Source of the DNA: Candidatus Micrarchaeota archaeon
GTDB taxonomy: Archaea > Micrarchaeota > Micrarchaeia > Micrarchaeales > CABMGC01
Direction: 5' to 3'
Length of the DNA stretch: 64,000 bases
Assembly: GCA_021810455.1 (NCBI GenBank)
Contig: JAJZIU010000001.1
Coordinates: 4,613-68,612, forward strand
The translations under genes were made by a program, and so were the position numbers. Under the pieces are notes generated by a model. It searched no databases. It saw only the letters and a list, made by a program, of their open reading frames with translations, and had not been told where the DNA came from. This document shows, piece by piece, positions 3,406 through 59,716 of the stretch. Positions within the stretch are counted from its first letter, which is position 1. The number at the start of each line of letters is the position of its first letter.

Positions 3406-3491
3406 TGCGCCAGCCGGGATTTGAACCCGGGCAGCGAGCTTTTTCCGTTGAAATGGGAAGCTCGAATCCTACCAGGCTAGATTACTGGCGC
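3406..3491 (-). tRNA. tRNA-Gly(CCC) with a 13-nt intron at the canonical 37/38 site
   Basis: The minus-strand read folds by hand as GCGCCAG-TA-ATCT-AGCCTGGTA-GGAT-T-CGAGC-[TTCCCA|tttcaacggaaaa|A]-GCTCG-CTGC-CCGGG-TTCAAAT-CCCGG-CTGGCGC-A. All four stems pair. The T-arm and acceptor resemble archaeal tRNA-Gly. No encoded CCA. The 5' end lies 8 nt after the stop of the upstream ORF. Confidence 0.75.
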
Positions 3492-25766: not shown

Positions 25767-26237
25767 GTGGAGCTTAACGAAGCGTCGCTTATAGAAAGGG
25801 AACTGACAGTAAGGAACCTTAGACTCAGTAGAGAAGTGTTAGAGACAAGACGGTCTGCGATAAGATGGCTCGCGCTGTCTTTGGGCATAATAAATCCCGG
25901 AGAGTCAAGACTTGGTTCTCTAGCGGTTTTGGATGCGCTGGTTTATTTTCAATTTGCTGTCAAGAAAGATCCAAACGTTAGGGAAATGATAGATTATATA
26001 AATGCAAATTGGGAAACAATTAATGAAAAAACCTTAAGGTATCATTTGTTAAGAATGAAAAAGATGGGTATAGTAGAAAACAATCAAAGCAAGTTTTATT
26101 TTAAACCGCCGCAGGTAGGAGATAGATTTGATGCATACGCTTGGTCTTCTGAATTGTTCGGGGCATTTTATAGCGGTGTTGCAGTTAAACTTGCTGACGT
26201 AATAAACAATCTGAAGAATAGAGATGTGGTTAGATGA
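25767..26237 (+). CDS. Winged-helix (wHTH) putative transcriptional regulator
   Basis: 156 aa with a GTG start. ...TLRYHLLRMKKMGIVENNQSKFYF is a recognition-helix/wing pattern. 4-nt overlap with the downstream surface-protein gene. Confidence 0.5.
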   Translation: MELNEASLIERELTVRNLRLSREVLETRRSAIRWLALSLGIINPGESRLGSLAVLDALVYFQFAVKKDPNVREMIDYINANWETINEKTLRYHLLRMKKMGIVENNQSKFYFKPPQVGDRFDAYAWSSELFGAFYSGVAVKLADVINNLKNRDVVR

Positions 26238-30593: not shown

Positions 30594-32996
30594 TCAATAG
30601 ATGAGTTTTGCGTCTGCTATTTTTGATCCGGAATCAAGTTTCATTAGTCTTACTCCGCTTGTTGCCCTGCCCGTCTCCCTTATGGAACTTACAGGTATGG
30701 TTATACTTATTCCCCTGTTGTTTATAAGCAATAGATGCGGTTCGTCGGACAAAGAAAGTGCCTTAGAAACGTTTCCTGTTTTCTGGTTTGTCCTAAGATT
30801 TGCTATGCCCTTTCCGCCTCTTTTTTGAGTTCTATATTTGTTTATAGGAGTTACCTTACCATAACCATTTTCAGTTACTGTCATTAGTTTGGTGCTGTCA
30901 TCTACAGCGAGTATGTTTCTAGGTACATCGTCCTTTAACCTTATGCCACGAACTCCCATTGCAGTCCTTCCGATAAATCTTAAATCATTATCATTAAACT
31001 TTATTGCTTTGCCTTTAGCTGTAGCGATAACTAAATATTTTTTATCTCTGTAGGAGACAACGTCGACTATTTCGTCTCCTTGAGCCAACGTTATTGCACG
31101 TACACCTGAAGAACGAGGTTTTGAGAATAGATCTGCGCGTACTTTTTTAACTAATCCTTTGCGAGTTAAGAACACAAGATTTGAATTTTCAAATCCTTTT
31201 ATATCCAACAAACCTATTATCTTTTCGTCAGTTATGTTTAGCAGGTTCACTATCGCTTTTCCTTCGGAATATCTGCTACTTTCAGGTACGTTGTATGCTT
31301 TTAGCCAGTAAACCCTCCCTTTGTTTGAAATAGAAAGGACGTAGTCTTTGTTATTACAGGCTATTACTTGGTTTACATAATCTCCGTCTTTGAGGTTTAT
31401 TGATATTACACCTTTTCCGCCGCGGGCTTGTTCTTTGTAGATTGTTGTTGCCATTCTCTTTACGTATCCTTCCTTGGTTAATATCAAAGTGACTGGCTCG
31501 TCACTTATCATATCTTCATCTTTTATCATGAATGCGCTTTCATCCTCTGATTTAATTATTTCTGTTTTTCGTGGTTTGCTATAAAGTTTTTTAATTTCTT
31601 CAGTTTCAGAGCGTATTATGCCTTTTATCTTTTCAGGATCAGAAATTACACCGGAGTAGTATTCTATTTTCCTTCCAAGTTCGTCACTTTCTATTTTTAA
31701 TGTGTCGCTTTCTAAATGAGTGAGTCTGGAAAGTTTCATATCGAGTATAGCGTCTGCTTGTTTTATTGTAAGGCTATGTGTGGTTATTAGCTTTTCGCGT
31801 GCGTCTTTGACTTCCTTACTGGCTTTTATATCACGTATTATATCGTCTATTTTTTCGATTGCTATCAGTAATCCTTGCACGATATGTTGTCTTTCGGTTG
31901 CCATGTTTAGTTCGTACTTACTTCTTCGGAGTATTACGTCTTTTCTATGCTCAACAAATACTGAAATCATTTGCAAAATATTAAGATTTCTAAGGCTTTT
32001 TCCAACAACTGCAAGGTTTATTATAGGCAGTGTGTTCTCTAACTGAGTATGTTTGTATAGTTGATTCAATATCTGGTCTGGGTCAAAATTTTCTTTAAGA
32101 TCTATGACTATGCGTATGCCGCCCTTATCGCTTTCGTCTCGGAGATCTTTTATTCCATTTATTCTTTTGTCTTTTACAAGAATTGCGATGGCTTGCACTA
32201 TTGATGCCTTGTTGGTGTTGTATGGTACTTCAGTTATCACTATTCTATTTTCGGAGCTTGTATCTGCTTTTGCTCTGACGCGAATCTGACCCCTGCCGTG
32301 TCTATAGCCATCATATGCGCTTTGTGACATTATTGCTATACCGCCTGTGGGAAAATCAGGTCCTTTAACTATTTCAAGAAGATCGTCTGCAGTAGTAACA
32401 GCGGATTCCAGGTATTTTATTATTGCATCACACACTTCAGACAGGTTGTGTGGGGGCATACTTGTCGCTACTCCAACAGCTATACCCGAAGATCCATTTA
32501 CAAGAAGGTTTGGTATTTTTGAAGGGAGTATAAGAGGCTCTTCCTCAGTGTTATCAAAATTTGGTATAAAATCAGCGGTGCCTTTATCAAGATCTTCCAA
32601 CATCTCCTCTGCAATTTTAGTAAGTCTGACTTCAGTGTATCTCTGTGCAGCAGGAGGATCTCCGTCTATTGAACCAAAATTCCCCTGACCTTCCACTAAA
32701 GTGTGATGCATAGAGAATCCTTGAGCCATACGAACCATTGCATCGTAAACGGCAGTATCTCCGTGTGGATGGTATTTTCCTATTGTTTCTCCAACTATTC
32801 TCGCGCTTTTTTTTGTCGGCTGATTGTGTAAATTTTTAAGATTATACATGGCGTAAAGTATCCTTCTTTGTACTGGTTTTAGGCCATCGCGAGCATCAGG
32901 TATAGCCCTTCCGATTATTACGCTCATTGCGTAATCCACGTAGCTAGCCTGAAGTTCTTCGTCAATCGGAGTTATTATCTGCTTTTCCATTTGCAA
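30594..32996 (-). CDS. gyrA: DNA gyrase subunit A
   Basis: 800 aa. [29 protein letters not shown], active-site region [15 protein letters not shown], and C-terminal beta-pinwheel repeats. Confidence 0.96.
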
Positions 32997-32999
32997 ACC

Positions 33000-34907
33000 T
33001 CATATGTCTAATGATTTTACTTCTTCCGCATGTTCTTGCAAAAATTTTCTTCTTTTTTGTACGTCCATGCCCATTAGAATCGTAAATAATTCGTCGGTGT
33101 GCATAGCATCGGTTATTGATACTTTTTTAAGTATCCTATTTTTAGGATCCATTGTAGTTTCCCATAGTTGCTCGGGATTCATTTCTCCTAAACCTTTGTA
33201 TCGTTGTACTTCTGCTTTTCCACCAAGTTCTTTCAGTTTCGCATCTAGTTCCTGATCGCTGTAACAGTAGGAAACATCTTTTCCTTTAGAAACTTTGTAT
33301 AGGGGGGGTTGTGCCATGTACACATAGCCGTCTTCTATTATTTTGCGCATGTACCTGTAAATAAAAGTTAGTAGAAGTGTGCGTATATGACTTCCGTCAA
33401 CATCCGCATCAGTCATGAGTATTATTTTTTTATATCGTATATTTTCTGAGTTGAACGATTCATTTATCCCAGTTCCAAAGGCCGTTATTAGTGCCTTGAT
33501 TTCAGCATTATCGAAGATTTTCTCTACGTTTGCTTTTTCTACGTTTAATATCTTGCCTCTTAATGGAAGGATTGCTTGTATGTTTTTGTCTCTTCCATCT
33601 TTTCCAGAGCCACCTGCGCTCTGTCCTTCTACTATGAAGAGCTCCGTTTCATCAGGATTATTTGATATACAATCTGCCAATTTTCCAGGAAGTACAGTGC
33701 CTTCGAATAAACTCTTTTTTCTTGCAAGCTCTCTAGCCTTGCGAGAACTTTCACGCGCGTTTGCAGCTGTTTCTGCCTTTTCTATTATTGCTTTGGCATC
33801 TGAAGGGTGCTCCTCGAGATAGCGAGATATATGAGAATATATCTCGGTTTCTACAATCGTCTTTATTTGCGCGTTACCGAGTTTGCCTTTTGTCTGTCCT
33901 TCAAATTCGGGGTTTTGCATCAATACACTAAGTACTGCGGTAAGTCCTTCCCTGACATCTTCGCCGGTTATTTTTGTTTCAGCTTTTCCGGATTTGTTTT
34001 TTGATATGTAATTTAGTACTGCTCGAGTCAGGCCAGTGTGGAACCCAACCACGTGGGTTCCGCCTTCCACAGTTCGTATGTTATTTACAAAGGATTCAAT
34101 TTTCTCGTCGTATGTACTATTATATTGTAGGGCGTACTCTATGCTTACCTGCCCTTCTTGTATTTTGGAACGTATTATATTTGTCAATGTAGTTTTTCCG
34201 TTGTTCATATAGCGTATAAAGTCGGTTATGCCTTCTTTGGATGAGTATGTTTCGTCTTCTGGAGACTCAAATCTCTCATCTTTTAGAGTTATGTTTATCC
34301 CAGGGTTTAAAAAACTCGTATATCTAAGCCTGTCTTTAAGAGTTGTTGAATCGAAAGTAGTAGTTTGGAATATCTCTTTATCAGGTTTGAATTCCGTAGT
34401 GGTTCCGGTTTCTTTAGTGTCACCAAGTTGTTGCAGAGGAGATGTTGGAACTCCTTTGCTAAAACCCATTCTGTAAATATGTCCGTCCTTTTTTACAGTT
34501 ACGTTTGTGTATTCAGATAATGCATTAACCACAGTAAGCCCAACGCCGTGCAGTCCTCCGGACACCTTGTAAGCATCGCTAGAGAATTTACCGCCTTTGT
34601 GCAGGGTGGTCATTATTACTTCGAGTGCACTTTTATTGAATTTTGGCATGATGTCTACAGGTATGCCACGACCGTCATCAATCACTTCGGCAACATTGAC
34701 ATCATTATCCATGAATAATCGTATTTTAATGTTTTTACAGTATCCGGACATTGCTTCGTCTACTGCATTGTCTATCACTTCGTAGAGAAGGTGAAGCACT
34801 CCGCTAGGGCCAGTAGAACCTATATACATTGCTGGTCTTTTACGTATTCCTTGCGGACCTTCGAGAACAATAATTTTAGATGCGTTGTAGTCGTCACTTT
34901 CTGCCAT
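33000..34907 (-). CDS. gyrB: DNA gyrase subunit B
   Basis: LEGPQGIRKRPAMYIGST, GLHGVG, EGQSAGGS, PLRGKILNV and DADVDGSHI. ATG at 34907 (MAESDDY...) preferred over the track start at 34964. Confidence 0.96.
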   Translation of the reverse strand: MAESDDYNASKIIVLEGPQGIRKRPAMYIGSTGPSGVLHLLYEVIDNAVDEAMSGYCKNIKIRLFMDNDVNVAEVIDDGRGIPVDIMPKFNKSALEVIMTTLHKGGKFSSDAYKVSGGLHGVGLTVVNALSEYTNVTVKKDGHIYRMGFSKGVPTSPLQQLGDTKETGTTTEFKPDKEIFQTTTFDSTTLKDRLRYTSFLNPGINITLKDERFESPEDETYSSKEGITDFIRYMNNGKTTLTNIIRSKIQEGQVSIEYALQYNSTYDEKIESFVNNIRTVEGGTHVVGFHTGLTRAVLNYISKNKSGKAETKITGEDVREGLTAVLSVLMQNPEFEGQTKGKLGNAQIKTIVETEIYSHISRYLEEHPSDAKAIIEKAETAANARESSRKARELARKKSLFEGTVLPGKLADCISNNPDETELFIVEGQSAGGSGKDGRDKNIQAILPLRGKILNVEKANVEKIFDNAEIKALITAFGTGINESFNSENIRYKKIILMTDADVDGSHIRTLLLTFIYRYMRKIIEDGYVYMAQPPLYKVSKGKDVSYCYSDQELDAKLKELGGKAEVQRYKGLGEMNPEQLWETTMDPKNRILKKVSITDAMHTDELFTILMGMDVQKRRKFLQEHAEEVKSLDI

Positions 34908-34975
34908 GAAAAACAACGCAAATATATCTGATTTTAAGACTATAAACCTTCTCTGCATATGCATATTGTGAGGTT

Positions 34976-40402: not shown

Positions 40403-40516
40403 ATGGCAAAGAAAGAACAAAAAGACGACGATGAAGAAGACGAAGAAGACGAAGAAGACTGGGACGAAGACGAAGAAGACGAAGACTGGGACGAAGACAT
40501 GGATGATGATGAATAA
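40403..40516 (+). CDS. 37-aa hyper-acidic mini-protein (not in ORF track)
   Basis: Manual translation gives MAKKEQKDDDEEDEEDEEDWDEDEEDEDWDEDMDDDE. ATG is preceded by GAGGTG 6 nt upstream and by a TATA-like box. The stop (40514-40516) directly abuts the stop of the convergent giant gene (40517). The antisense track ORFs here are Ser- or Leu/Arg-repeat artefacts. Confidence 0.5.
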   Translation: MAKKEQKDDDEEDEEDEEDWDEDEEDEDWDEDMDDDE

Positions 40517-43500
40517 TCATCCGTATTTTTTGCGGATTGCGTAAATTGCCAATACTGAGGCAAGCGCAATCGCTAAAATAACTACTCCTAAGTTTCCATA
40601 TCCTAACTCTGCTAGTCCTATGTCCACCCCTTCTTGGGTATAATTAGGGAACCATTGGTAATTGAGTACATTAAATGTAGTGTACGATTTCGAGGTTGGA
40701 TCTGCAGATGAAGACAACCACGCTTGACTGGCTTGTAATGGTTGTGGGGAAGGAGACCCGTAAAACCTTGCAATTATCGTGGCACTCCCTATCCCACAAG
40801 CGTATATGCTGTTGCTAAAGAAACCCATCGAATTTGTTGTTGTTGTACCTACTAGCCCAAGCTGTGATGTGCACGTCCCTGTACCGTTGCTAAATATCGG
40901 TTGGCAGAATCTCTGTTGGCCATTTTGTCCCGGAGAACATGTTTGTGGAATATTTTTGTTTCCATCATTACCGTATATATTACAATTAGTATCTACTGGT
41001 ACAAGCAACGAATTTGGGGGAGGATTGCATTCTCCAAGCGAATTGTAGGCTGTTGAGTATGTTATGGTATTTGCGTTATTTGTCTGCCCTAAATAAACAG
41101 GATTTGCCAAAACGCAATTGCTAGGTATCTGTGCTCCGCTTCCAACATCTCCAAAAGCGCAAAGCATTGCATTTTTTTCATTAGATGGGTTTTGAAGTGC
41201 ATTGTATCCTATATAATTGATATTTGTATCATAATACAGATATATTAGCCCGTTTCTGAGAGGATAAAATTTATTGTTTATTGGACTGTAATATCCAACA
41301 GTACCATTTATGAAAATTTTTGTATCGTTTGCGTTATTCGAATTGACTACCGGGGTTACCTGTAGTGATATGCTTGTTGTATTCGCTATATCCGTATCAA
41401 GCGGGGCGTATATTGCGTTGCCGAATCTATCTCTTAATACAAAAACAAGCCTCTGATAACCTAGGACATTGGCAACACTTCCTGCGCCGTATTTAAAACT
41501 TGAACTGTTTATATTAAAACTCATAGGATTGTTGTAAACAATCTGCTGGTACCAATCAAAAAGCTTCACGAATGTAGGCAATGCTGAATTAATGTTGAAT
41601 ACGTTTTGATAAGATATGCCTGTCCTGGTATTAGTCGCTATCTTTTGATTTCCAACAAGAGCATACGCGGGTCCATTATAAGGGCCGTAAGGCAAAGAAG
41701 ATATTGTTTGATAACTCAAAGGCCCTAATTGGGTATTAAAGACAGTATTTATTATGTTGTACTCTAAAAGATCGGTTGCATTAAGCACCACTTGGTTATT
41801 CGTTGTTGGTCCTGTGGTAGCATTTACGTAAATGCTACCAAACTGCTTGTCTCCCTGAATATTCATTATCATCTGTGGATTTATGTAAGAACCTAGGTCA
41901 GACATGTTCGGAACATAATAATTACTTCCTTGGGGCCCGCTAAACTGAAGATAAATTCCACCCCCTTCAACATTTGCAGAAAGTGAGTTGGATCTTGCAT
42001 TTATTATTCCATAAGAAAAAATCTCGCTTGAACTTGAACTGGAATGACTTGATGGTGGGTTACTACACGATGCACCCTGCTGTATTGGTACCCCCGTGCC
42101 TGAAAATTGCCAATTCTGACTGGTTGAGTATGTGTATTTGTACGGTACCAACACATAACCTATAATATTGCTAGTCATGCTTACCGGGGAGGTAACCACC
42201 GAAGTTCCTGGAGGTATTGAAACAGACGTTCCCGTTATGCCACCAAGTTCCGAATTTGTAGGAGGTGTAAACCCTGAAAAACAACTCGAGTATGAACTCG
42301 AATTCAAAGAACCAGATTGCAAACTATTTATACACGTTTGATTGTAACTCTGCGATTGCTGTGACTGTGGACTTCCTCCTCCTCCAGTGAACGCAGATCC
42401 GAATAAATTCTGATATGATAATATTCTACCCGATCCCGTACTCTCCAAATACTTGAAAGGATCCGCAACCGTGTATATCGGTGCTGCAAGCTGATCTAAA
42501 TAAGAACTAGGTTTGCACGAGTTAGAATTCACTCCGGTATCTACAAAACATGAGAATAAACCTATTCCATCCAACAATCTTGTGTAATTTTCAATGCTTA
42601 CTTTTGCAAACAGAAGTTCTCCGTAGTCATTGGCAACAGTCTGGCAGTTAAGAAAACAGCCATTGTTGATGTGCTGCTGCGATGGGAATAAGAAGTCAGC
42701 AGTATAGTTATAATTTACTGAAAAACTGGACTGAGCTTCTCGTGGCACGCCACAACCTATGCCTATTCCAAAAGGCAGATTGAAGCAAGCTATGGCTTGA
42801 ACATTCGGTCCTAGTGACAAATAGCTCGATTTCAAGTTGTTTGGATTATAATCGCACGATTCTGAAGAACAAAAAGAAACATAGTTGCTATTATGTCCAC
42901 TTTCTAACACGTTTGCAGATAATACCCACCCATAAGGTGGATATGTATCATTAGGATAGAAACCAGGAGTGGCTGTTGTATAATACGTTGAAGTTGGTTG
43001 CCCCCCTGCACCAACACACTTATACTGGTATGTAGGAGCCTCTCCAGTTCTTGCACTAGTAACTCCCAAAGCACTGCCTGGACATGTTGATGAAATCTGT
43101 GGAGAACAGCCAACCGCAGCATTGCAATTAGGAACTACTCCACATTTAGATACTTGTGGTGTATTACATGTTGCCGCTCGCTGTGAATACATGTCGTTGA
43201 ACTTCGTAGGGTTAAATGGCACATTGGTTCCAGAAGAATTTATGACTCTAAGTAATAACGTATTGAAAAAGACACCTTGTCCTGAAATCCCGGGCACTGG
43301 CCCCGGAGTGCCAACGTACCCTCCCCAATTGTCTAAAACATACAAATATCCATTAACATCCTGAATACCTATTGGGTGGTGAAATGCTTGCGTATCAAAT
43401 GCAAGACCTTGATACTTCTGCGTTTGTACTGCTGATAGTGCAGACTTAATCCAACCTGGTGTAATACCATATAATCCGCCATTCTCCAAATACGTCGCAA

Positions 43501-46060
43501 TATTAAGATTCGCCAAGGTTGTTGATACACTCTCACCAGGAATAATTCCTGGAGACGCGGTGGTGTTCGAAACAGGCAAATTAGCATTATAATCAAAAGT
43601 AAGATCGATACTGTCTTCTAAGGCAAGCGAATTCCCGCTATAAACCTCTATGCTGCCATAAGATGGGCTTGCTAAATAAATCTGTTGTCCGCTTGGTGAA
43701 ACTGTAATCTCCTGGAATTGTTTATCTATTGTATTTGTAGTCACTGCTGGTGAACCTGTCAAGATGCCAGTTATCTCAACCAATGAGGGATGTGTTGATT
43801 GTATAGGGCCTCTGTTAGTTTGGATTGATGTCGTGGTACTACCAACAATGAAAACATCCCCATTATTATCTACTGATATATTGAATGGTGTAAACCCTTG
43901 CAATTGCGAAAAACCATTCAAGTCAGATTGGGAAATCAAATAACTATAACCGTTTTCACTATTTGCCACAAGCCCCCAATAGTTACTCCATGCGGTATTC
44001 CATTGCGAAGTGCAGCTGCTTTCAGATGCAGGATTGCAACTCACTTGTTGGATTGCTGATGTGGGTGTCTGTGGATTTGTAAAAGACCCTTTAGGTATGG
44101 CTCTTAAAACATTAAGTTGATATGCTCCAGATGTCCCAGTAAGTACGAATATGTAGTCATTGGGCATAACTGCCACGGATAGTGGACTCGGTAATGCGGA
44201 AGGCGGTCCAGATATTATACCACAGTTTGGACTACCTTCGGTACACCAAGGTAGACCGTTCTGCCCTTGGAGACAATTATTGTACTGTTTGCCATTGTAC
44301 GTATAAAGTCCTATTCCACCATCCATTGCTCCAGAGTAGGTTGTGGGCATGTATTGACAGTATGCCCCTACAAACTCGTTTACTGCTGGATCATCAAATG
44401 TCTGCCAATAACAAAACTTCTTACCCTGGACAACACCTGGGCAATTCTGATAGTTACTTCCAAAATATTGGATATAATCTTGTGCCCACTGCATTTCGCA
44501 TAACGGATTAAATTCCCAATTTGAAGCTCCTGTGGAGCAACTAGAAGGATTATAATTTGGTACTACTGGGTTTTGGTCATTCTGCAATAAGCCACAAGGA
44601 CATTTTCCACTTCCACCATATGTTGCTCCAGGATAGAAACCACTTTCAGCATTAGCTATAGAAACTATTATTTCCAATTCCGTTCCTGTAAAACCGGCTT
44701 GTTGCGCACATGCTACAACTTGTGAAAACTGCATCTTATAATGTGGAGAATTTTGGAAGTTTTGGTCAGGACAAGTTGCGGTTTGACTTGAACTAGTCTG
44801 TGCCTGTCCTGTTTGACTTGTGGTTGTTGTAACGATTCCTAGGCGACCTCCAACTCCTCTTACTGGTTGTGTTACTGCGCTTCCTAAGTTATTAAGAATA
44901 GTGCCTATTTGTGCAAGTGTATCTTCCTTTCCATTAAATGCACAAAGAAGACTGTCGAGACTTAAAACTACCTGGCCACTACTCTGGCAAGTTAAAAGAC
45001 TACCGCTATAATTTACAAACAAAATACCTGGTATGTCTACACTGAATGGATCAACTATTGATGGAGTATAATAATTCCAAGGGCTGAATACGTCATACTG
45101 CAAGTTACTTATCTGTGGAACCATGGTGGATAAAGACCCTGGTACGCCTATACTATATCCATAAGTAAGATATGGTAACGCTGGGGTATCAAACTGTGAC
45201 ATTATCGGATTCCCATTGTTATCCACTCCTGTAACTACGTTGAAAGGTATGTAACTATTTGCTATACTTCTCAATGTGGTCGTTTCACCGTAATTATACG
45301 TATACTGGCAACCATTCTCATCGTATGTTAGATCCTGCTCATTTATCTGTTTCGACTGTGGCAACCGTGCATTAGCTCCTTCAAAATTTGCAAAAGTTGC
45401 ACTCCAAGTCCATATATCATTCTGCGCGAAAGAAGGAACGCCGTTGAATATGTACGTGTTCGTTGCAAATCCGTTAGACAATTCCCCATCTACCATCGGT
45501 GTATAAGCTATATTCTTGACTTCTGCATTACCCGGATTGCCAACTTGCAGTGGGCCTACTGATGCCTGAGCGAGAGAAGATTGAGACCAGGTTACTGTGG
45601 TCACGAGTGTCAACTGACTCACAAGTGAACCCTGTGTGTTAAGACACGGCGCACCCGCAACGAACGGCACAATCCCGCTATAAAACAACACGTTAGATGT
45701 TGGGTCTGATGGCACATTTTCACATGTAAGAAACTTCAAGGCCTCCTGTTGATTTTGATTAGCAACTTGTAATACTGGGGATTCCTTGTAAATCTGTCCT
45801 TCTGGAGTTGAACTTTCCGAAGATGAAAAAACACCCGAATAGCTTGTAGTAAACGGAACCGTTATGGTGCTCGAAGCACTTCCGGAAGAAGGTTGTTGAA
45901 ATACAACATTATTAAATCCTGAATTTGATGGCGTTTCAAAAGATGCGTTGTAAAAATGCGATGTTAATAAAATCCCAAGTGCAAAAAATACAAGAGAAAG
46001 TACTAGTAAACATGAAAATAGAAAAGGCCATGCCTGGTCTTTTTTATCCTTAGCAACCAT
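40517..46060 (-). CDS. Giant (1,847 aa) Cys-rich surface protein with N- and C-terminal hydrophobic anchors, an SLT/lysozyme-like segment and NHL-like repeats
   Basis: Uninterrupted 5.5-kb ORF. N-terminal WPFLFSCLLVLSLVFFALGILL and C-terminal VVILAIALASVLAIYAIRKKYG. IANAESGF...CGLLQ lies at residues ~468-493. Blades include PIGIQDVNGYLYVLDNWGG. The composition is S/T/N/G-rich with few charged residues, many Cys and many N-x-S/T sequons. Confidence 0.85.
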   Translation of the reverse strand: MVAKDKKDQAWPFLFSCLLVLSLVFFALGILLTSHFYNASFETPSNSGFNNVVFQQPSSGSASSTITVPFTTSYSGVFSSSESSTPEGQIYKESPVLQVANQNQQEALKFLTCENVPSDPTSNVLFYSGIVPFVAGAPCLNTQGSLVSQLTLVTTVTWSQSSLAQASVGPLQVGNPGNAEVKNIAYTPMVDGELSNGFATNTYIFNGVPSFAQNDIWTWSATFANFEGANARLPQSKQINEQDLTYDENGCQYTYNYGETTTLRSIANSYIPFNVVTGVDNNGNPIMSQFDTPALPYLTYGYSIGVPGSLSTMVPQISNLQYDVFSPWNYYTPSIVDPFSVDIPGILFVNYSGSLLTCQSSGQVVLSLDSLLCAFNGKEDTLAQIGTILNNLGSAVTQPVRGVGGRLGIVTTTTSQTGQAQTSSSQTATCPDQNFQNSPHYKMQFSQVVACAQQAGFTGTELEIIVSIANAESGFYPGATYGGSGKCPCGLLQNDQNPVVPNYNPSSCSTGASNWEFNPLCEMQWAQDYIQYFGSNYQNCPGVVQGKKFCYWQTFDDPAVNEFVGAYCQYMPTTYSGAMDGGIGLYTYNGKQYNNCLQGQNGLPWCTEGSPNCGIISGPPSALPSPLSVAVMPNDYIFVLTGTSGAYQLNVLRAIPKGSFTNPQTPTSAIQQVSCNPASESSCTSQWNTAWSNYWGLVANSENGYSYLISQSDLNGFSQLQGFTPFNISVDNNGDVFIVGSTTTSIQTNRGPIQSTHPSLVEITGILTGSPAVTTNTIDKQFQEITVSPSGQQIYLASPSYGSIEVYSGNSLALEDSIDLTFDYNANLPVSNTTASPGIIPGESVSTTLANLNIATYLENGGLYGITPGWIKSALSAVQTQKYQGLAFDTQAFHHPIGIQDVNGYLYVLDNWGGYVGTPGPVPGISGQGVFFNTLLLRVINSSGTNVPFNPTKFNDMYSQRAATCNTPQVSKCGVVPNCNAAVGCSPQISSTCPGSALGVTSARTGEAPTYQYKCVGAGGQPTSTYYTTATPGFYPNDTYPPYGWVLSANVLESGHNSNYVSFCSSESCDYNPNNLKSSYLSLGPNVQAIACFNLPFGIGIGCGVPREAQSSFSVNYNYTADFLFPSQQHINNGCFLNCQTVANDYGELLFAKVSIENYTRLLDGIGLFSCFVDTGVNSNSCKPSSYLDQLAAPIYTVADPFKYLESTGSGRILSYQNLFGSAFTGGGGSPQSQQSQSYNQTCINSLQSGSLNSSSYSSCFSGFTPPTNSELGGITGTSVSIPPGTSVVTSPVSMTSNIIGYVLVPYKYTYSTSQNWQFSGTGVPIQQGASCSNPPSSHSSSSSSEIFSYGIINARSNSLSANVEGGGIYLQFSGPQGSNYYVPNMSDLGSYINPQMIMNIQGDKQFGSIYVNATTGPTTNNQVVLNATDLLEYNIINTVFNTQLGPLSYQTISSLPYGPYNGPAYALVGNQKIATNTRTGISYQNVFNINSALPTFVKLFDWYQQIVYNNPMSFNINSSSFKYGAGSVANVLGYQRLVFVLRDRFGNAIYAPLDTDIANTTSISLQVTPVVNSNNANDTKIFINGTVGYYSPINNKFYPLRNGLIYLYYDTNINYIGYNALQNPSNEKNAMLCAFGDVGSGAQIPSNCVLANPVYLGQTNNANTITYSTAYNSLGECNPPPNSLLVPVDTNCNIYGNDGNKNIPQTCSPGQNGQQRFCQPIFSNGTGTCTSQLGLVGTTTTNSMGFFSNSIYACGIGSATIIARFYGSPSPQPLQASQAWLSSSADPTSKSYTTFNVLNYQWFPNYTQEGVDIGLAELGYGNLGVVILAIALASVLAIYAIRKKYG

Positions 46061-46110: not shown

Positions 46111-47598
46111 TTACATGATGTATATAGAGAAGCGCCTTATCGCTCGTTTACCAAAAATGTAGAACCTATTGCTATTCTTTTTAACATCTTTTATCAAGGG
46201 TTTATATCTGGCCTTTTCTTCGGGACTAAGTTTACCCTCCTTCACAATTGTTTGCTTTTTGCCTTCGACTATCTGCGTCTCTGTTTTACTTATTATGTCC
46301 TTCTTTACCATGCTGTACCATTCGTCAAGAGTATTTCCATGCGCCTTGATCATTCTTATGAAATCCCTCATTTCTATCTTTCTCTTCTTTCCTGTTCTAT
46401 CTTCTTCAGCTGCTGGTATTAATGCTGCTTTATCACAAATCTCTTCTATATCTGCCTGTGAGAAACCCATCGATGCTCTGGCCAGTCTGCCAAAATTCAT
46501 TCTCCCCAAAGGCATTTTCCTTGTGTTGTATATGAAAGCATGTTTTCTTGTTTTATAATCTGGAGGAGGCACATATATCGATTCTCCAAAACGTTTGCTT
46601 CTCTTAAGTGCAGGATCAATATCCCACGGTTGGTTTGTAGCACCTATTACAAATATGCCTTCAGGATTCTTCTCTATGCCATCCATTTCTTGCAAGAACT
46701 GGTTAACTGCCATTCTCATATAACTCTGCTGTTCTCCACCTCCCTCTCTTTTCATACCTAACGCATCTATCTCGTCAAAAAATATTATTACTGGGGTATT
46801 TTTCCTTGCCTGTTCGAATATGGCATGCATATTCTTTTCAGTATTTCCTGCATACATATCCACAATTTCATTAATCCTTGCAATCATAACGTTTGATCCA
46901 GTTTCTCCACCTATTGCATTTACCAGATATGTTTTTCCATTTCCAGGAGGCCCGTAAAAAATAACTCCCAATCCCAATTTTTTCCCGTACGCTTTCAACA
47001 GTTCTGGTTTTCTTATAGCCAGTATTATATTTTCATAGATGAGCTTCTTCTCCCTTTCCATTCCCACTACGTCTTTGAAAGTGATGTTTGACTTATGCCA
47101 TCTGACTTTTTTTAACTGTCCCTCCTCAACAACAGTTTCAGAAGATCCTCCCACCTTGGTTTTTTCTGATTTCTCTTCAATATCCTGCTTACCTAGTTTT
47201 GGCATAAGTTGTTCAAGTCTGGCCTTTGCCTGTTCATAATTGGGATTTCTGCTAAGAGCCTTTTCATACCATTCCTTCGCTCCTACATAATCATGCTGAT
47301 ATTCCGATATTATACCCATAACGTACGGTGCATCGTGGCTATTCGGTTCCATGTCCATAACTTTCTCTGCGTCTCTGGTAGCTTCGGTATACTTATTAAC
47401 TATGGCATAAGCTAATGCTCTGTTGAAATACGCACTGCCGTAATTGGGGTCTTCTTTTATTGCTTCAGAATAAAACTCGATGGCATCTTCGAATCTGTTT
47501 TCTTCAAAAGCTTTCCCCGCTTTAACATAGGCTTCCTTAGCTGCAGGATTCTGGGTATCCTTTCTCTCCTCCTTCTGTTCCTGCTCGGAAGCTTCCAT
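46111..47598 (-). CDS. TPR-repeat AAA+ ATPase (classic-clade AAA with an N-terminal TPR domain)
   Basis: 495 aa. About three TPR repeats (FEDAIEFYSEAIKEDPNYGSAYFNRALAY..., AKEWYEKALSRNPNY). Walker A GPPGNGKT, Walker B IIFFDEID, and second region of homology ATNQPWDIDPALKRSKRFGE. Confidence 0.85.
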   Translation of the reverse strand: MEASEQEQKEERKDTQNPAAKEAYVKAGKAFEENRFEDAIEFYSEAIKEDPNYGSAYFNRALAYAIVNKYTEATRDAEKVMDMEPNSHDAPYVMGIISEYQHDYVGAKEWYEKALSRNPNYEQAKARLEQLMPKLGKQDIEEKSEKTKVGGSSETVVEEGQLKKVRWHKSNITFKDVVGMEREKKLIYENIILAIRKPELLKAYGKKLGLGVIFYGPPGNGKTYLVNAIGGETGSNVMIARINEIVDMYAGNTEKNMHAIFEQARKNTPVIIFFDEIDALGMKREGGGEQQSYMRMAVNQFLQEMDGIEKNPEGIFVIGATNQPWDIDPALKRSKRFGESIYVPPPDYKTRKHAFIYNTRKMPLGRMNFGRLARASMGFSQADIEEICDKAALIPAAEEDRTGKKRKIEMRDFIRMIKAHGNTLDEWYSMVKKDIISKTETQIVEGKKQTIVKEGKLSPEEKARYKPLIKDVKKNSNRFYIFGKRAIRRFSIYIM

Positions 47599-48113: not shown

Positions 48114-48857
48114 TTACAGATTTCTAAGATCTCCTATAACTCCAAAATCAAGCGTCTCTCCCTCTCCAATACAAAATGCCCGCATCTTATCTGCATCAGC
48201 TAATTTTCTAAATACAGGTGCCATCTTACTTATATCTTCAAAATTAACACTTACTCCATCTGCAAAATAATTCATTGCAGGAAGCACCAGCAGTTTCCTA
48301 CCATCTTTTAAATCACCATACAAAAAACACTTCAGCTTCTCAAACTTTCCGATACCGTTCGGTACTGATATTGCGGGATGTACGTGTCCCATTATCAGAA
48401 GCTCTCCACCCTTACTCATAGGCGCTTCCTCTCCGTGAAAAAACAAAAAATCATCTATTAGGGTTTCCTGCCGATGCACCGTAATTTTCAACGGTTCTTT
48501 AAGCCTATCTATAAAATTGTCATGGTTTCCTTTAATCAAAGTAATCTCTTTTACTCCAAGATCTCCTTTAAGATATTCTACAAATTCTCTAAATTCATTA
48601 AACTCTTCAACATGCACTTTTGAAAATTCGTTTTTTATATCCCCATCAACTATTATCCGTTTTGCACCTGTAATCTCTTCTGCAATCTTCAAAGTATCTT
48701 TTATCTTTTTTAAATTTACTTTTGGCAAGAACGTGCCATTATCTGCCATAACCCCCTCATATCCCAGGTGCAGATCGGTGCAAACTATTGCTGAAAGGGA
48801 CCTGATTCTAATTACCGGAAGGCCGTCTAATATTTCTACGTTTTTGCTTAATTTCAT
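48114..48857 (-). CDS. MPE/SbcD-related archaeal metallophosphoesterase (Lhr-associated type)
   Basis: CTDLHLGYE, VDGDIKNEF, IKGNHDNF, FFHGEE and GHVHP are calcineurin-like phosphoesterase motifs. Any plausible start (ATG 48857 or 48872) overlaps the upstream lhr 3' end (48808) by at least 50 nt. Confidence 0.75.
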   Translation of the reverse strand: MKLSKNVEILDGLPVIRIRSLSAIVCTDLHLGYEGVMADNGTFLPKVNLKKIKDTLKIAEEITGAKRIIVDGDIKNEFSKVHVEEFNEFREFVEYLKGDLGVKEITLIKGNHDNFIDRLKEPLKITVHRQETLIDDFLFFHGEEAPMSKGGELLIMGHVHPAISVPNGIGKFEKLKCFLYGDLKDGRKLLVLPAMNYFADGVSVNFEDISKMAPVFRKLADADKMRAFCIGEGETLDFGVIGDLRNL

Positions 48858-51513
48858 TCTTAGATACACCAATCTTCGAAAGTACTCTTTTATGCAATTC
48901 CCTTATGTGCTTCCTTCTATCCTTCATCATTATAACATCTGCTTCCCCAAAAGTTATCACACCGTGGGAAAATGGCGAAGGCAATTTCGTCTCTATTATT
49001 CTATAACTCAAATTCCCGGATATTAATCCCTCTATTATTTCCTTCGCTCGAGGCAGATCCATAACATCCTCAAATATCTCACGATACGTTTCTTTCAGTA
49101 CCGGGAAATCTTCTCCTAATTCCTCCACTGATTTCAACAAAAGCGCAGAGTTAACCTGCTGTTTTCTAACACTTATCTTCCTGCCTTTATAATTCCTAAG
49201 TACCATAAAACTTCTTGCTGCACAGTATCTAAATCTCCTTCTCATCATCTCCGTCCTTCTTATATTCGTTTTCAGCAAGTTTTCTACGTCAATGCCTTTC
49301 AACATGCCTATTGCCTTAGATACATCATTCTTACCTATTTTTGTATTCTCATCTGTAAATAACGCGAATCCGTTGTCATTTATGTTTATTCCAATATCTA
49401 CATCATACATTTCTGCCAACACTATTGCAAATATCCTTGATAAAGCATCATTCACTCTTCTCCCGTAAAGACTATGAAATACAACGATATTCTTCCCGTC
49501 GTTGTCATCTTCTGTTGTCTCTATCAGCACTAACTTATCTGTTGGCACATATCCTGCAAAAAGCAACTGTTCTGCAAAATAGTTGAATACAGAAGTCTTT
49601 GAGTTTTGATCCATCGGCATGGCATCAAGCACCTTCCTACATTCCGCATCAGGCGTGAGCGTTCCCTTTACAATCTTTTTTATAACTTCTTGATTTTTAT
49701 TTATCGAATGTCCCATCGCTGTAGACAACAAACTCCTGAATTTTCCAATGTTTATTGCAAGCTCATAAGTCAATGGCAACTGTTCCGAAAACCAGGGAGG
49801 TATGGTGGGGATTTCTCCAGCAGCATCGCTAACATAACACTTCATAATCCTAGCGTATTCGAATCTGTACGGTTTTCCTCCAAGCACAAAAATATCACCT
49901 GGTTTAAGCCTGGCAAGAAATTCCTCCTCTATACTGCCTATCCACTTGCTATCTTTTGTCAAAACATCTATTGAAACCTCATCAGGTATTGTTCCCAAAT
50001 TCAAATAATATATTAATCTAGCAAACTTGCCTCTTTTTCCAAATGCACGTTCGTTTTCATCATACCAAATCTTACCATATACCCTTCTGCTTTCCAAACC
50101 AACATACAATCCCGAAAGATACTTTATCAGAAGATCAAAATCATGAACACTTAAGTTTCTGTAAGCATAGGCTCTTCTAACCAGTTCAAGTGCATCTTCA
50201 ACTTTCCATTTCTTCTCTAAAGACATTCCTACTATGTGTTGTGCAAGTACATCCATCGCATTTGCCGGGGTCGAAAACGAATCAAGATGTCTTTTTATCG
50301 CAGAATCAAGCATTACCGCACATTCTACTAAATCATCTCTATTCGTAACTATCACCTCGCCTCTTGCAACGTCATTAAATCTGTGTCCGCTTCTTCCAAT
50401 TCTTTGCACTGCCCTGGCAACACTTTTTGGAGAACCTAGCTGTACAACATTATCTATCGAACCTATATCTAATCCAAGCTCAAGGCTCGTGGAAGACACG
50501 GCGCACTTCAATTTGCCTTTTTTTAGCATCTCTTCTACTTCTAACCTCGTTTCCCTAGAGAGTGAACCATGGTGTGCCGCTATCGCTTGCTCGTCATATC
50601 CGAATCTTTTTGATAAATTGTATACGACACGTTCGGTCCCGCTTCGTGTATTTGTAAAAACAAGAGTTGTTTTGTTCTTCTTTATTATGTCATTTATTAT
50701 TTTGTATATTGAATTTTCTATCTTTTCATCCCTTGCGTTTATTATATCCTTTACTGGGCAGATAACTTCAAAATCCAACTTCTTCTCCCATGTAGCATCC
50801 ACCACGTGGCAGTCTCTTTCCTTACCGTCTCTGTAACCTACTAAGAATCTTGCTGCTTCATCCAACGGATGCAATGTCGCACCCATACCCACTCTGATAA
50901 GCTCTTTACCTACAAGATCGACTAATCTCTCTATAGAAAGTGAGAGATGAACACCTCTCTTATTGTTTGCGAGTTCGTGAAGTTCGTCTATTACAACATA
51001 CTTCACATTCTTCATATTCTCCGCAAATTTTGGAGAATTCAATATTATGGCAAGACTCTCCGGTGTTGTTACCAATATGTTTGGAGGATGTGCAAGCTGT
51101 CTCTGTCTCTCAGAGGGTTTAGTATCTCCTGTCCTTATGCCTACTGTTATCTTTTTTATATCTATACTTATGCCCGAATAAATATCCTCTAAGGGTTCCG
51201 TCAAGTTTTTAAAAACATCATTGTTAAGGGCTCTTAACGGAGAAACATAGATGCAATATATTTTTTCTTCGAGTTTTCCTTCAAGAGACATGTTCATAAG
51301 GTCGCTAAGTATCGACATGAATGCTGAAAATGTTTTGCCACTTCCTGTAGGTGCTGTTATCAATATGCTCTTGCCTTCTTTAACGAGTTTAAAAGAGTAC
51401 AACTGCGGAGGTGTCGGATTTACATACTTTTTTTCAAACCAAACCCTGATAAATTGGTTAAGTGAACCGAGACTCTCTTCTCTACTGAAAGGGGCTTTGC
51501 AACTAACTATCAA
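48808..51513 (-). CDS. lhr: Lhr-type DEAD/DEAH-box superfamily 2 helicase (paralog 2, MPE-linked)
   Basis: 901 aa. APTGSGKT, IDELHE, SSTSLELGLDIG, QRIGRSGHR and the Lhr-core-like C-terminal domain. TTG start. No C-terminal zinc ribbon, unlike paralog 1. Confidence 0.86.
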   Translation of the reverse strand: MIVSCKAPFSREESLGSLNQFIRVWFEKKYVNPTPPQLYSFKLVKEGKSILITAPTGSGKTFSAFMSILSDLMNMSLEGKLEEKIYCIYVSPLRALNNDVFKNLTEPLEDIYSGISIDIKKITVGIRTGDTKPSERQRQLAHPPNILVTTPESLAIILNSPKFAENMKNVKYVVIDELHELANNKRGVHLSLSIERLVDLVGKELIRVGMGATLHPLDEAARFLVGYRDGKERDCHVVDATWEKKLDFEVICPVKDIINARDEKIENSIYKIINDIIKKNKTTLVFTNTRSGTERVVYNLSKRFGYDEQAIAAHHGSLSRETRLEVEEMLKKGKLKCAVSSTSLELGLDIGSIDNVVQLGSPKSVARAVQRIGRSGHRFNDVARGEVIVTNRDDLVECAVMLDSAIKRHLDSFSTPANAMDVLAQHIVGMSLEKKWKVEDALELVRRAYAYRNLSVHDFDLLIKYLSGLYVGLESRRVYGKIWYDENERAFGKRGKFARLIYYLNLGTIPDEVSIDVLTKDSKWIGSIEEEFLARLKPGDIFVLGGKPYRFEYARIMKCYVSDAAGEIPTIPPWFSEQLPLTYELAINIGKFRSLLSTAMGHSINKNQEVIKKIVKGTLTPDAECRKVLDAMPMDQNSKTSVFNYFAEQLLFAGYVPTDKLVLIETTEDDNDGKNIVVFHSLYGRRVNDALSRIFAIVLAEMYDVDIGININDNGFALFTDENTKIGKNDVSKAIGMLKGIDVENLLKTNIRRTEMMRRRFRYCAARSFMVLRNYKGRKISVRKQQVNSALLLKSVEELGEDFPVLKETYREIFEDVMDLPRAKEIIEGLISGNLSYRIIETKLPSPFSHGVITFGEADVIMMKDRRKHIRELHKRVLSKIGVSKNEIKQKRRNIRRPSGN

Positions 51514-57183: not shown

Positions 57184-57966
57184 ATGGACTATCTTAAATA
57201 CACGTCCTCTCTTGATAAAAACATGATTAAAACCCAATGCGCCTATTGTGGTTCATATGTTTTATCCTATTCTGAAGAAGCATTCTGTCATTTCTGCGAG
57301 GGGCACGTATCAAAAACAGAATCAAATAACGATCAAACATATCAAAGTATCCTTTCTATACGCAACCTGATCTCTACGAAGCACACATCTGAAGCGATAT
57401 CCGCTGCCGATTCCCTATCTATCAAGCAAACTTCGCCGCGTGTACTCTTCGGTCTGGCAAACATCTATCGCACGCTTTCCAATCATATTTACTTTGATAC
57501 TAACTACAATCTTGATGGATTCATGTACAAAAATTCTGACAACATATATCTATCACTTGATCTCATATCAAAATCTAAGGAAATGTTCTACAAGCACATA
57601 AAACTGTCTGTAGAAACCGATCCCATATCAACATTCACCCTATTCATAAGTAATCTTAAACTGGAACGTATGATTTATGCAAAAAAACTACTAGAAAAAC
57701 TTGTCAATATGCCCGGACTTATATCGAACTACGCCATAATGGCTTACTCTGCAGAAAATAAACTTAAACAAGCTGATATCAGCGCACTTAAAATGATTGA
57801 TTCCAGTACTAACTCGTTATATTACCTGTCAAAATGTCTAATAAACATGAACAAACGCGAAGAAGCAGAAAAAATTCTCGAAAGGTTAACAACCACTATC
57901 GACATGCCCGATGCTTTTTATCTTTTACTCAAACTGCGGCGTCTCAAGGACGAAACGAAGATTTAG
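57184..57966 (+). CDS. Hypothetical protein, N-terminal zinc ribbon plus helical (TPR-like) body
   Basis: 260 aa. QCAYCGS....FCHFCEG C4 pattern, with the remainder predicted helical. The 3' end overlaps the convergent GH15 gene by 23 nt. Confidence 0.5.
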   Translation: MDYLKYTSSLDKNMIKTQCAYCGSYVLSYSEEAFCHFCEGHVSKTESNNDQTYQSILSIRNLISTKHTSEAISAADSLSIKQTSPRVLFGLANIYRTLSNHIYFDTNYNLDGFMYKNSDNIYLSLDLISKSKEMFYKHIKLSVETDPISTFTLFISNLKLERMIYAKKLLEKLVNMPGLISNYAIMAYSAENKLKQADISALKMIDSSTNSLYYLSKCLINMNKREEAEKILERLTTTIDMPDAFYLLLKLRRLKDETKI

Positions 57967-59716
57967 CCTTCGCATTGTTGTATGCTACTATCGCTTCAAC
58001 AAGACCAGCGTGTGAAAATAATTGAGGTACATTTCCTCTCGGTTCATTTGTTTTGCTATCTATGTGTTCTGGCAACAGGAGTAAATCGTTAGAATAACTT
58101 ATTATTTTATTTATTATACTTCTAGCTCTTTCTAGATTGCCCATCATGATGTGTACTCTTGCCAACCACGTATTTACTAAAACGAAAGGATTGGATACTT
58201 CTCCGTCAAAATCACTAACGTATCTGAGCAATAACCCATTTTTGGATACTAATCTGCTTTCAACAAGTCTAACTGTTTTTCTAAAAATTGGATTTTCAAC
58301 GCTTACAAAGTTATACAATGGCATGGTCAACAGTGTAGAATCTATTACATTCCCTCCATAATAATGAACAAATGTTCCTGTGTCCTCAGATACGCTATTA
58401 TCCAGTATGTCCTCCTTTATCTTATTGCTAGCCTCTCTCCACAAACTCTCTTTAGATCTGTAACCCATGCTCCCTGCAAGCATGCTTGCTCTGTCAAGTG
58501 CAACCCAGTTCATAAGTTTTGTATGCAAAACATGTCTCTTTTCATCTCTTTCTTCCCACATACTTATGCTTGGTTCCTTCCAAGATTTAATCACCCAATC
58601 CGAGATCGATTCTACTGCCCACCAATTCTCTTTTATGTAATCTGTATCCCTGCTCCTTGAAAAATAAACGTGCAGAGCGTTCATGAAGTCTCCTTCAGAA
58701 TCCATCTGCACCTGCAAATAAGCTGCATTACCAACTCTGACAGGCTTCGAGCTTCTGTATCCTGACAGCCAATCCAATGTTTCTTCGGCTCTGGGAGAAG
58801 TTCCATCTATTGAATAAAGCGGATGGTTAAAGCTCTTTGATGACGGATCTACCAAACTAAAAAGAAACGTTAGTATCTTGCGTGCTTTATATCCCATCCC
58901 AGCTTTTGCCAGTGCTTCAGCCGCATAAGCGGCATCACGCACCCACACATACCTGTAATCCCAATTCCTATCTCCACCCAGTATTTCAGGCAATGATGTC
59001 GTAGCTGCCGCTATAGCGCCTCCGGAAGGCGTGTAAGTTAATCCCAACATAGTTAAAAGAGACCTCTTATACGCCTTCGAAAATTCTTCAATCTTCTTCG
59101 CCTTCATCACCTGTTCTCTCCAATATCTTAGGGTTTTCTCCAAGGCATCGTATGGGTTGGCGTATACATACCCGACGTTGCTGAACAAGCCGTACCTGAG
59201 ATCTTTTGAATACATCAGAAACAGATATCCCTTTCCCGGTTCTACTACTGCCCTGGTATCACTTGTAAATCTGAAACTCCCTGATATCAAAAGCTCTATG
59301 CTTTCTTTAGAATTAGGATTTCTGAACACTCTTCCATTATTTTCTTCTTCGATTCCCGGATTCGTCAAACCATATTCAAATACAGGCTTAACATCTATGA
59401 CAAATGGGACTTCGGATTCGTATAATCTCACTATGGCAGGAATTCCTAATGGTAAAAAATCTGTAAGTTCGAGACTCCCTTCTTTTGATTCGAATCTGTT
59501 TTTTACTACCATACTGTCTTCTACATACTCTACACTATGTTCATAATCTGTCTTTGGTTTTACAGAAAAATAGCCGCTCTGATTACCGCCTATTATGCTT
59601 GAGAACACAGAAGCAGAATCAAATCTTGGACATGGAAACCAATCTACAACCCCTGATAGTTCTAAAGCAGAAGTTATTCCATTGGATAAGAACACCCTGC
59701 CTCTTTCGGATCTCAT
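57944..59716 (-). CDS. Glycoside hydrolase family 15 (glucoamylase/trehalase-like)
   Basis: 590 aa. N-terminal beta-sandwich start (LSNGITSALELSGVVDWFPCPRFDS) and (alpha/alpha)6 region motifs DYRYVWVRDAAYAA and WEERDE.. typical of archaeal GH15 enzymes. Confidence 0.82.
   Translation of the reverse strand: MRSERGRVFLSNGITSALELSGVVDWFPCPRFDSASVFSSIIGGNQSGYFSVKPKTDYEHSVEYVEDSMVVKNRFESKEGSLELTDFLPLGIPAIVRLYESEVPFVIDVKPVFEYGLTNPGIEEENNGRVFRNPNSKESIELLISGSFRFTSDTRAVVEPGKGYLFLMYSKDLRYGLFSNVGYVYANPYDALEKTLRYWREQVMKAKKIEEFSKAYKRSLLTMLGLTYTPSGGAIAAATTSLPEILGGDRNWDYRYVWVRDAAYAAEALAKAGMGYKARKILTFLFSLVDPSSKSFNHPLYSIDGTSPRAEETLDWLSGYRSSKPVRVGNAAYLQVQMDSEGDFMNALHVYFSRSRDTDYIKENWWAVESISDWVIKSWKEPSISMWEERDEKRHVLHTKLMNWVALDRASMLAGSMGYRSKESLWREASNKIKEDILDNSVSEDTGTFVHYYGGNVIDSTLLTMPLYNFVSVENPIFRKTVRLVESRLVSKNGLLLRYVSDFDGEVSNPFVLVNTWLARVHIMMGNLERARSIINKIISYSNDLLLLPEHIDSKTNEPRGNVPQLFSHAGLVEAIVAYNNAKAKSSFRP

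Follow-up and report, generated by a model that had tools for sequence, protein, structure and literature searches.

A giant surface protein of 1847 amino acids (aa), encoded on the minus strand of a 64,000-nucleotide stretch of archaeal DNA (GenBank assembly GCA_021810455.1, contig JAJZIU010000001.1, positions 4,613 to 68,612 of the forward strand), almost certainly contains a genuine lysozyme-like domain. Hereafter 'the window' means the whole of this stretch, to which all nucleotide coordinates refer, and 'the giant' means this protein. The giant's sequence is found identically on 21 contigs from several samples, and its database annotation is 'hypothetical protein', without a precomputed Pfam domain. 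An initial annotation, made from the sequence alone, had noticed a Glu-Ser pair followed by G-L-L-Q and proposed a lysozyme or lytic-transglycosylase-type module inside an archaeal surface protein; a hidden Markov model (HMM) match of the SLT type, a conserved glutamate and a lysozyme-like predicted fold now bear this proposal out. For its function we lean, on sequence evidence and with some reserve, towards a contact-dependent muralytic module used against bacteria, the murein substrate being part of that statement.

Homology, conservation and predicted fold

Minus-strand translation of 44336-44743 reproduces exactly the peptide that had been quoted for residues 440-575, with E472-S473 and G490-L-L-Q493 at the reported positions and 16 residues between S473 and G490. 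That span lies inside the true domain, which is wider than first drawn and extends over about aa 430-613 (44222-44773, minus strand). Taken alone the motif is mildly unusual and at most suggestive: the pattern ES-x(10,25)-G-[LIVM]-[LIVMA]-Q occurs in 2.4% of composition-preserving shuffles of the giant, and a single-sequence phmmer search of the Protein Data Bank (PDB) with aa 421-637 returned one irrelevant match (E=0.76), the corresponding domain of the relative P0009 returning none. A chance motif in a low-complexity surface protein is nevertheless vanishingly improbable, being refuted by the concordance of conservation, HMM, profile and fold evidence.

The nearest profile is Pfam SLT_3 (PF18896, 'Lysozyme like domain'; gathering cut-off 27 bits), which the domain segment matches at E=5.6e-4 with 20.8 bits (16.1 bits for the full protein), over model positions 3-48 only. 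Three homologs match the entire 89-position model with 48.6 (P0009), 48.1 (P0010) and 33.9 bits (P0011), all at the position equivalent to the giant's segment. The SLT-type HMM match asked for by the initial annotation hence exists, weak in the giant itself and above threshold in homologs, and membership of the giant in SLT_3 holds only through transitive homology. A full-length homolog search found 13 related giants, 3 of them with a precomputed SLT_3 domain, and an exhaustive phmmer search with aa 421-637 against 1.84 billion representatives gave just 22 proteins at E<1e-3, which indicates that the subfamily is rare. Among the 27 homologous domains of our main alignment (A1; 29-53% identity to the giant's domain), 13 match SLT_3 at E<0.01 (best E=4.4e-14) and 4 match Pfam SLT (PF01464; cut-off 21.3 bits) at E<0.01. 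A literature search found no paper that mentions PF18896.

Conservation in A1 centres on the residues expected of a lysozyme-type active site. The glutamate E472, whose conservation had been named as a check, is kept in 26/27 domains, S473 in 27/27, G490 in 26/27, Q493 in 23/27, N518 in 25/27 and P519 in 27/27, and five cysteines are near-invariant. The sole copy without the catalytic Glu is an extra N-terminal tandem duplicate in P0009/P0010. In these two proteins (tandem duplicates at aa 387-601 of P0009 and aa 384-598 of P0010) the first copy has the Glu replaced (AEASS) and carries long insertions; it is probably degenerate and binding-only. Compared with the SLT_3 model, the giant's domain has long insertions, 12 cysteines and an extra conserved C-terminal extension (W552, Y567-C-x-Y-M-P572).

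Broader searches added little. Word-index homolog searches with the domain and with A1 came back empty, missing even the family's own members, so that they are insensitive and no evidence of absence. A contig scan with the giant as query gave no relative, PHROGs gave no match, and NCBIfam gave one weak VirB1 match (E=0.002), confined to a single member. When metagenomes and viruses were scanned with a closer alignment (A3), no confirmed relative emerged, hence no sign of viral origin. Recent horizontal transfer of the domain was considered and rejected, its GC content (41.1%, against a window mean of 38.7 ± 2.3%) giving no compositional signal.

Searched against all PDB sequences, the A1 profile retrieves C-type lysozymes (best E=2.6e-4; hen egg-white lysozyme (HEWL) and canine milk lysozyme are among the family). 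The alignment places HEWL Glu35-Ser36 on E472-S473 and the G-I-(L/F)-Q motif (G54-I-L-Q57 in HEWL) on GLLQ, and hhalign of A1 against HEWL is concordant (E=1.5e-4). The similarity extends over about 60 residues, in a block of the form GF-G-x-L-x-x-x-V-x-x-A-x-x-E-S-x-F-N...G-I-L-Q. Hen lysozyme itself scores 23.7 bits (E=6.6e-5) against SLT_3, above the giant's own domain. The SLT_3 model lies, in sequence space, between glycoside hydrolase families 22 (GH22, the C-type lysozymes) and 23 (GH23), and the GH22 flavour of the domain arises because the model itself has it. Both sides are disulfide-rich secreted domains; unlike C-type lysozymes, the giant's domain does not match PF00062 (Lys), has another cysteine pattern and is unrelated in sequence in its C-terminal half.

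The kinship with GH23 (Slt70, MltC, goose-type lysozyme, phage tail lysozymes) consists in a single Glu-Ser, a GLMQ-like motif II and structural match probabilities of 0.9-1.0. Family-1 lytic transglycosylases carry the motifs I (E-S), II (G-L-M-Q) and III (A-Y-N-x-G). Motifs I and II, which the initial annotation had compared with that family, are present and conserved in the giant's domain. The nearest model is SLT_3, PF01464 being reached with only 12.1 bits and E=0.14, below threshold, and where GH23 enzymes have A-Y-N-x-G the giant has F517-N518-P519 ([YF]-N-P), an approximation to motif III at best. A helix-Glu-Ser motif and a hairpin of the form G-[LIV]-x-Q are common to SLT_3 and the giant's domain.

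The column of HEWL Asp52 holds Pro488 in the giant and Asp in 3/27 A1 members only. Since there is no second carboxylate at this position, single-Glu chemistry of the GH23 kind, as in lytic transglycosylases or goose-type lysozymes, is more likely than the hen-lysozyme mechanism; GH23 enzymes function with one Glu. From the conserved residues we judge the domain probably catalytically active.

The AlphaFold2 (AF2) model of the domain, built from A1, has a mean predicted local distance difference test (pLDDT) score of 79 and a predicted template modelling score (pTM) of 0.73, with pLDDT >90 at model residues 11-60 and 81-110. According to DSSP, helix 39-53 of the model ends at E52-S53 (E472-S473 of the giant) and short beta bridges lie around GLLQ, so that the predicted structure has the Glu at the C-terminal end of a helix and a small beta-hairpin after it, as the lysozyme fold does. 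The leading Foldseek matches in the PDB all belong to the lysozyme superfamily (GH124 cellulase, HEWL, alpha-lactalbumin, i-type lysozymes, MltC, Slt and phiKZ gp144), with probabilities of 0.9-0.99, E-values of 1e-2 to 0.3 and a TM-score, normalised to HEWL, of about 0.5. Among viral models (BFVD) the matches are phage SLT proteins, tail lysozymes and phi29-type morphogenesis hydrolases (probability up to 1.0, best E=1.5e-3). The structure prediction suggested by the initial annotation, with Slt as one comparison, hence gave a lysozyme-like fold. None of the outcomes it had named as contrary to the proposal (no HMM or structural match, an unconserved Glu, an unrelated fold) was found.

Predicted layout of the giant surface protein

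The features of the gene, with positions in the window, are as follows.

40517..46060, minus strand: giant surface-protein open reading frame (ORF), 1847 aa
45950..46036, minus strand: N-terminal hydrophobic segment, aa 9-37, a likely signal peptide or signal anchor, with export suggested by the sequence
44849..45892, minus strand: conserved N-terminal ectodomain, aa ~57-404, aligning with most family members
44774..44848, minus strand: Ser/Thr/Gln-rich linker, aa 405-429, by sequence inspection
44222..44773, minus strand: Cys-rich lysozyme-like domain, aa 430-613, with 12 of the giant's 45 Cys
44330..44773, minus strand: conserved core of the lysozyme-like domain, aa 430-577
44642..44647, minus strand: E472-S473 codons (E472 at 44645-44647, S473 at 44642-44644), the predicted catalytic Glu and the Ser after it
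44582..44593, minus strand: G490-L-L-Q493, beta-hairpin motif (motif II of SLT, GILQ of HEWL)
44504..44509, minus strand: N518-P519 in [YF]-N-P-x-C-x-x-Q-W-A, possible counterpart of SLT motif III (AYNxG)
42311..44143, minus strand: repeat-rich middle region, aa ~640-1250, weak beta-propeller (SBBP) similarity
42476..43564, minus strand: hypervariable cassette, aa ~833-1195, sharply bounded between otherwise near-identical alleles
40529..40606, minus strand: C-terminal transmembrane anchor, aa 1819-1844, a hydrophobic window followed by the short basic tail RKKYG

Ser, Gly, Asn and Thr make up 38% of the giant's residues, and there are 45 Cys and 19 N-x-S/T sequons. Only two Kyte-Doolittle windows exceed 1.8, at aa 9-37 and aa 1819-1844, which suggests a Sec-exported ectoprotein held in the membrane by its C terminus. 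Anchored in this way, the protein would carry the lysozyme-like domain in its membrane-distal third. We infer the surface location from the hydrophobic segments at both termini together with the 12 Cys concentrated in the domain. An ORF on the plus strand over the domain region (44182..44511, 109 aa) was dismissed as spurious because it runs antisense to the conserved coding frame.

For the N-terminal ectodomain (aa 40-425, 11-sequence alignment) AF2 gave no usable fold (pLDDT 34). The SBBP assignment of the middle region is weak, with E=0.19 in the giant and values up to E=5e-4 and 20.3 bits (cut-off 20.5) in homologs. A conserved C-terminal region follows between the repeat-rich part and the membrane anchor.

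The cassette within the middle region became apparent from P0001 and P0008, two alleles from different metagenome-assembled genomes (MAGs). Their identity is 71% at aa 801-1000 and 52% at aa 1001-1200, compared with 96-100% in all other blocks of 100-220 residues, and the divergence covers ~360 aa with indels and reshuffled cysteines. By sequence the cassette resembles a recognition region that undergoes recombination or diversification. A diversity-generating retroelement can be set aside as its cause: the neighbouring RVT_3 match is an RNase HI and no reverse transcriptase, and mutagenesis by such an element does not fit a divergence that includes indels over ~360 aa.

Companion domains and the choice of substrate

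Five relatives carry a further recognisable enzyme domain directly after the lysozyme-like domain.

P0023, residues 689-802: NlpC/P60, E=8e-16
P0026, residues 574-666: NlpC/P60, E=3.7e-4 and 20.9 bits, under the cut-off of 23
P0027, residues 548-645: a second, canonical SLT, 27.5 bits (cut-off 21.3)
P0038, residues 614-678: M23, E=2e-5, just under the cut-off
P0040, residues 1110-1280: Amidase_6, E=4e-13

As a rule, murein hydrolases of bacteria and phages join a module that cuts the glycan strand to one that cuts the stem peptide or an amide bond, and the pairing of glycosidase and peptidase in phi29 gp13 and in conjugation and tail lysins is found in relatives of the giant's domain too. Peptidoglycan is favoured as the target mainly because relatives pair the domain with NlpC/P60, M23, Amidase_6 or SLT. 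Pseudomurein was ruled out as a substrate on general background, its beta-1,3-linked glycan being lysozyme-insensitive and confined to Methanobacteriales and Methanopyrales.

The explanation that we favour would run as follows. It takes aa ~430-613 as a domain of the lysozyme-like superfamily, strongly divergent and rich in disulfides, with Pfam SLT_3 as its nearest model. Exported by its N-terminal signal and held by its C-terminal helix, the giant would display this domain in its outer third. Glu472, at the end of a helix, would serve as the general acid in cleaving a beta-1,4 glycosidic linkage of an N-acetylglucosamine (GlcNAc)-type glycan; the GLLQ hairpin and the conserved N518/P519/W525/Y529 region may together form the groove that holds this glycan. 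The substrate would most likely be bacterial peptidoglycan. The producer is probably a Micrarchaeota archaeon of the DPANN group, living in acid mine drainage, and may breach or digest bacterial walls on contact, for nutrients or in competition, with the hypervariable middle cassette perhaps providing target recognition. Of the three functions that the initial annotation had offered, attack on bacteria is the one that gains from the companion domains.

Several observations weigh against this explanation. The giant's own copy misses the SLT_3 threshold (20.8 against 27 bits), and the Foldseek E-values are modest (best 1e-2 in PDB, 1.5e-3 in BFVD), a consequence of the large insertions; the match lists are uniform nonetheless. 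The giant itself has the glycosidase-type domain alone, with no companion peptidase domain. Many paralogs and orthologs of the giant lack the domain, eight homologous giants aligning on both sides of it, so that the domain is an optional cassette, dispensable for the protein's core role. Three further points count at the same time in favour of another substrate: the top structural match in the PDB is a GH124 cellulase, an example of this fold at work on a beta-1,4 glycan other than murein; peptidoglycan-binding modules (LysM, SH3, PG_binding) were recognised neither in the giant nor in 20 scanned relatives; and the organism is most likely a member of the Micrarchaeota, of which the cultured representatives are known to live on wall-less Thermoplasmatales or S-layered Sulfolobales and not on bacteria (PMC8975820, PMC8784108).

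These last points would suit a domain whose target is not murein but the glycans of an archaeal partner or host, which it would cut or hold on to, aiding attachment of an episymbiont and opening a contact site; candidates are chitobiose-containing N-glycans of S-layer glycoproteins, the glycocalyx of Thermoplasmatales or a shared biofilm matrix polysaccharide. The hypervariable cassette in the same protein, which suggests partner-specific recognition, points the same way. This alternative is unlikely all the same: it hardly explains four independent murein-type partners in relatives, whose characterised members act on murein stem peptides or glycan strands, and we know of no archaeal glycan that is a lysozyme substrate. 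A little more doubtful still is its fuller form, in which a lysozyme-fold enzyme of new archaeal-glycan specificity, together with the hypervariable cassette, would let a DPANN episymbiont open the envelope of its archaeal host and set up a cell-cell bridge. If true, ectosymbiosis between archaea would have its first identified enzymatic 'can-opener'.

That the module is catalytically dead and serves as a glycan binder or structural element, in the manner of alpha-lactalbumin and inactive SLT-like domains, would agree with its strong divergence below the Pfam threshold, its large insertions relative to canonical lysozymes, the absence of the second GH22 carboxylate, the alpha-lactalbumins among its structural matches and the extra Glu-less copy in P0009 and P0010. 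We consider it improbable, given that Glu472 is retained in all but one of the aligned domains at 29-53% identity and Ser473 is invariant, as expected of catalysis and not of binding alone, and that a single Glu is enough for GH23 enzymes; the non-catalytic binder proposed in the initial annotation is opposed by the same Glu conservation. A role in remodelling the cell's own envelope during growth or division, be it a glycosylated S-layer or an unrecognised glycan wall, is far less probable again. The giant is membrane-anchored on the producer's surface by prediction, and the Micrarchaeota S-layer is glycosylated (bioRxiv 10.1101/2021.04.28.441871), yet the absence of the domain from so many relatives is unlike a housekeeping envelope function, the protein, anchored by its C terminus, would hold the domain at the end away from the membrane, and no murein-like polymer is known in Micrarchaeota.

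Locus, organism and precedents

The giant gene has a chromosomal location amid housekeeping genes. Its surroundings show synteny with the P0011 locus, in which an Lhr helicase, a metallophosphatase, RNase HI, an AAA/TPR ATPase, the giant and a 37-aa acidic ORF recur; the P0011 giant, a syntenic ortholog, carries an SLT_3 domain above threshold. Directly upstream of the giant, on the same strand, is a TPR-AAA+ ATPase (SpoVK/Vps4-like; 46111-47598, minus strand), whose position is kept in the syntenic locus. The 37-aa hyper-acidic ORF (MAKKEQKDDDEEDEEDEEDWDEDEEDEDWDEDMDDDE; 40403-40516, plus strand) is convergent with the giant gene and abuts its stop codon, and the same place next to the giant of the syntenic locus L085 is taken by its counterpart (17695-17808). 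Within 21 kb lie two large helicases of the Lhr type (DEAD / Helicase_C / WH_Lhr / DEAD_assoc; 27855-30584, plus strand, and 48808-51513, minus strand); the second is followed by the metallophosphatase, a pairing kept in the syntenic locus L085. Elsewhere in the window are a CARDB-domain protein of 537 aa, likely a surface protein (26234-27847, plus strand), a GH15 glucoamylase/trehalase-like enzyme (57944-59716, minus strand) and a tRNA-Gly(TCC) (3406-3491, minus strand) of 86 nt, compared with 75 nt in the other two tRNAs, which suggests an intron or extended structure.

The organism was assessed with a marker from the gyrase genes.

30594-32996, minus strand: GyrA
33000-34964, minus strand: GyrB

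NCBI names on the neighbouring proteins read 'Candidatus Marsarchaeota archaeon'. Against GTDB species representatives, almost all GyrA matches are Micrarchaeota MAGs at 51-69% identity, and identity to the complete Ca. Micrarchaeum sp. A_DKE genome is 55%. The few 'Marsarchaeota' matches are FK_Sedi_* bins from one study, interleaved with Micrarchaeota matches, and the named homologs of the giant are also from Micrarchaeota. With moderate confidence, from this one marker and the giant's relatives, we take the organism to be a DPANN Micrarchaeota archaeon and the Marsarchaeota label to be a deposit-level error.

Murein-directed proteins have precedents in such organisms. In Woese- and Pacearchaeota, large extracellular proteins with a murein lytic transglycosylase, reaching ~3,000 aa, have been interpreted as a means of attaching to bacterial walls or degrading them (PMC8204110, where Rinke 2013 and Castelle 2015 are cited for earlier notes on such proteins). 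Three Micrarchaeota genomes were noted to have a 'lytic murein transglycosylase' (Chen et al. 2018, PMC5864196), GH23 genes stand behind the 'vampiristic' Woesearchaeota hypothesis (Vigneron et al. 2022, PMC9723730), and archaeal peptidoglycan hydrolases have been shown experimentally to kill bacteria (Strock et al. 2025, PMC12352652). The statement in the initial annotation that such a module is unexpected in archaea was therefore overstated.

The giant agrees with the description of the DPANN lytic-transglycosylase proteins (Castelle et al. 2021, fam00969) as very large predicted extracellular proteins with a lysozyme or lytic-transglycosylase-type module and the same proposed role: it probably comes from a DPANN archaeon, has 1847 aa and terminal hydrophobic anchors and contains a lysozyme-like domain. 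This is a match by description and no evidence of homology. Those proteins were caught as GH23/SLT by standard annotation, whereas the giant is 'hypothetical' without precomputed Pfam domain, and its lytic module, unlike theirs, is an optional cassette, exchanged for or combined with NlpC/P60, M23, Amidase_6 or SLT. The M23 enzymes of Halogranum salarium (PMC12352652) are likewise archaeal secreted murein-hydrolase homologs read as anti-bacterial weapons, but they are small secreted M23 plus PG_binding_1 proteins of haloarchaea. The giant lacks the combination of a catalytic with a recognised wall-binding domain that defines modular hydrolases in Strock et al. 2025; their survey required a recognised wall-binding domain and would hence miss it. 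The giant's domain is an unannotated, unusually divergent case within a known category, not a new category. What sets it apart is its resemblance to SLT_3 and GH22, a scaffold rich in cysteines from an acid environment, its behaviour as a cassette with four alternative murein-type partners, and the hypervariable region next to it.

The family offers a lysozyme-like scaffold that is compact, disulfide-rich and presumably stable in acid, and within a single protein frame it shows a natural set of cassette exchanges (NlpC/P60, M23, Amidase_6, SLT). That a hypervariable cassette adjoins an invariant lytic module suggests recognition of the arms-race type, which could reveal with what these uncultured cells come into contact. 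Should the domain be active on murein, acidophilic Micrarchaeota would join the archaea that have weapons or feeding tools against bacteria, and such tools could hide in 'hypothetical' giant surface proteins that, like this one with no Pfam domain at threshold and no wall-binding module, escape standard annotation.

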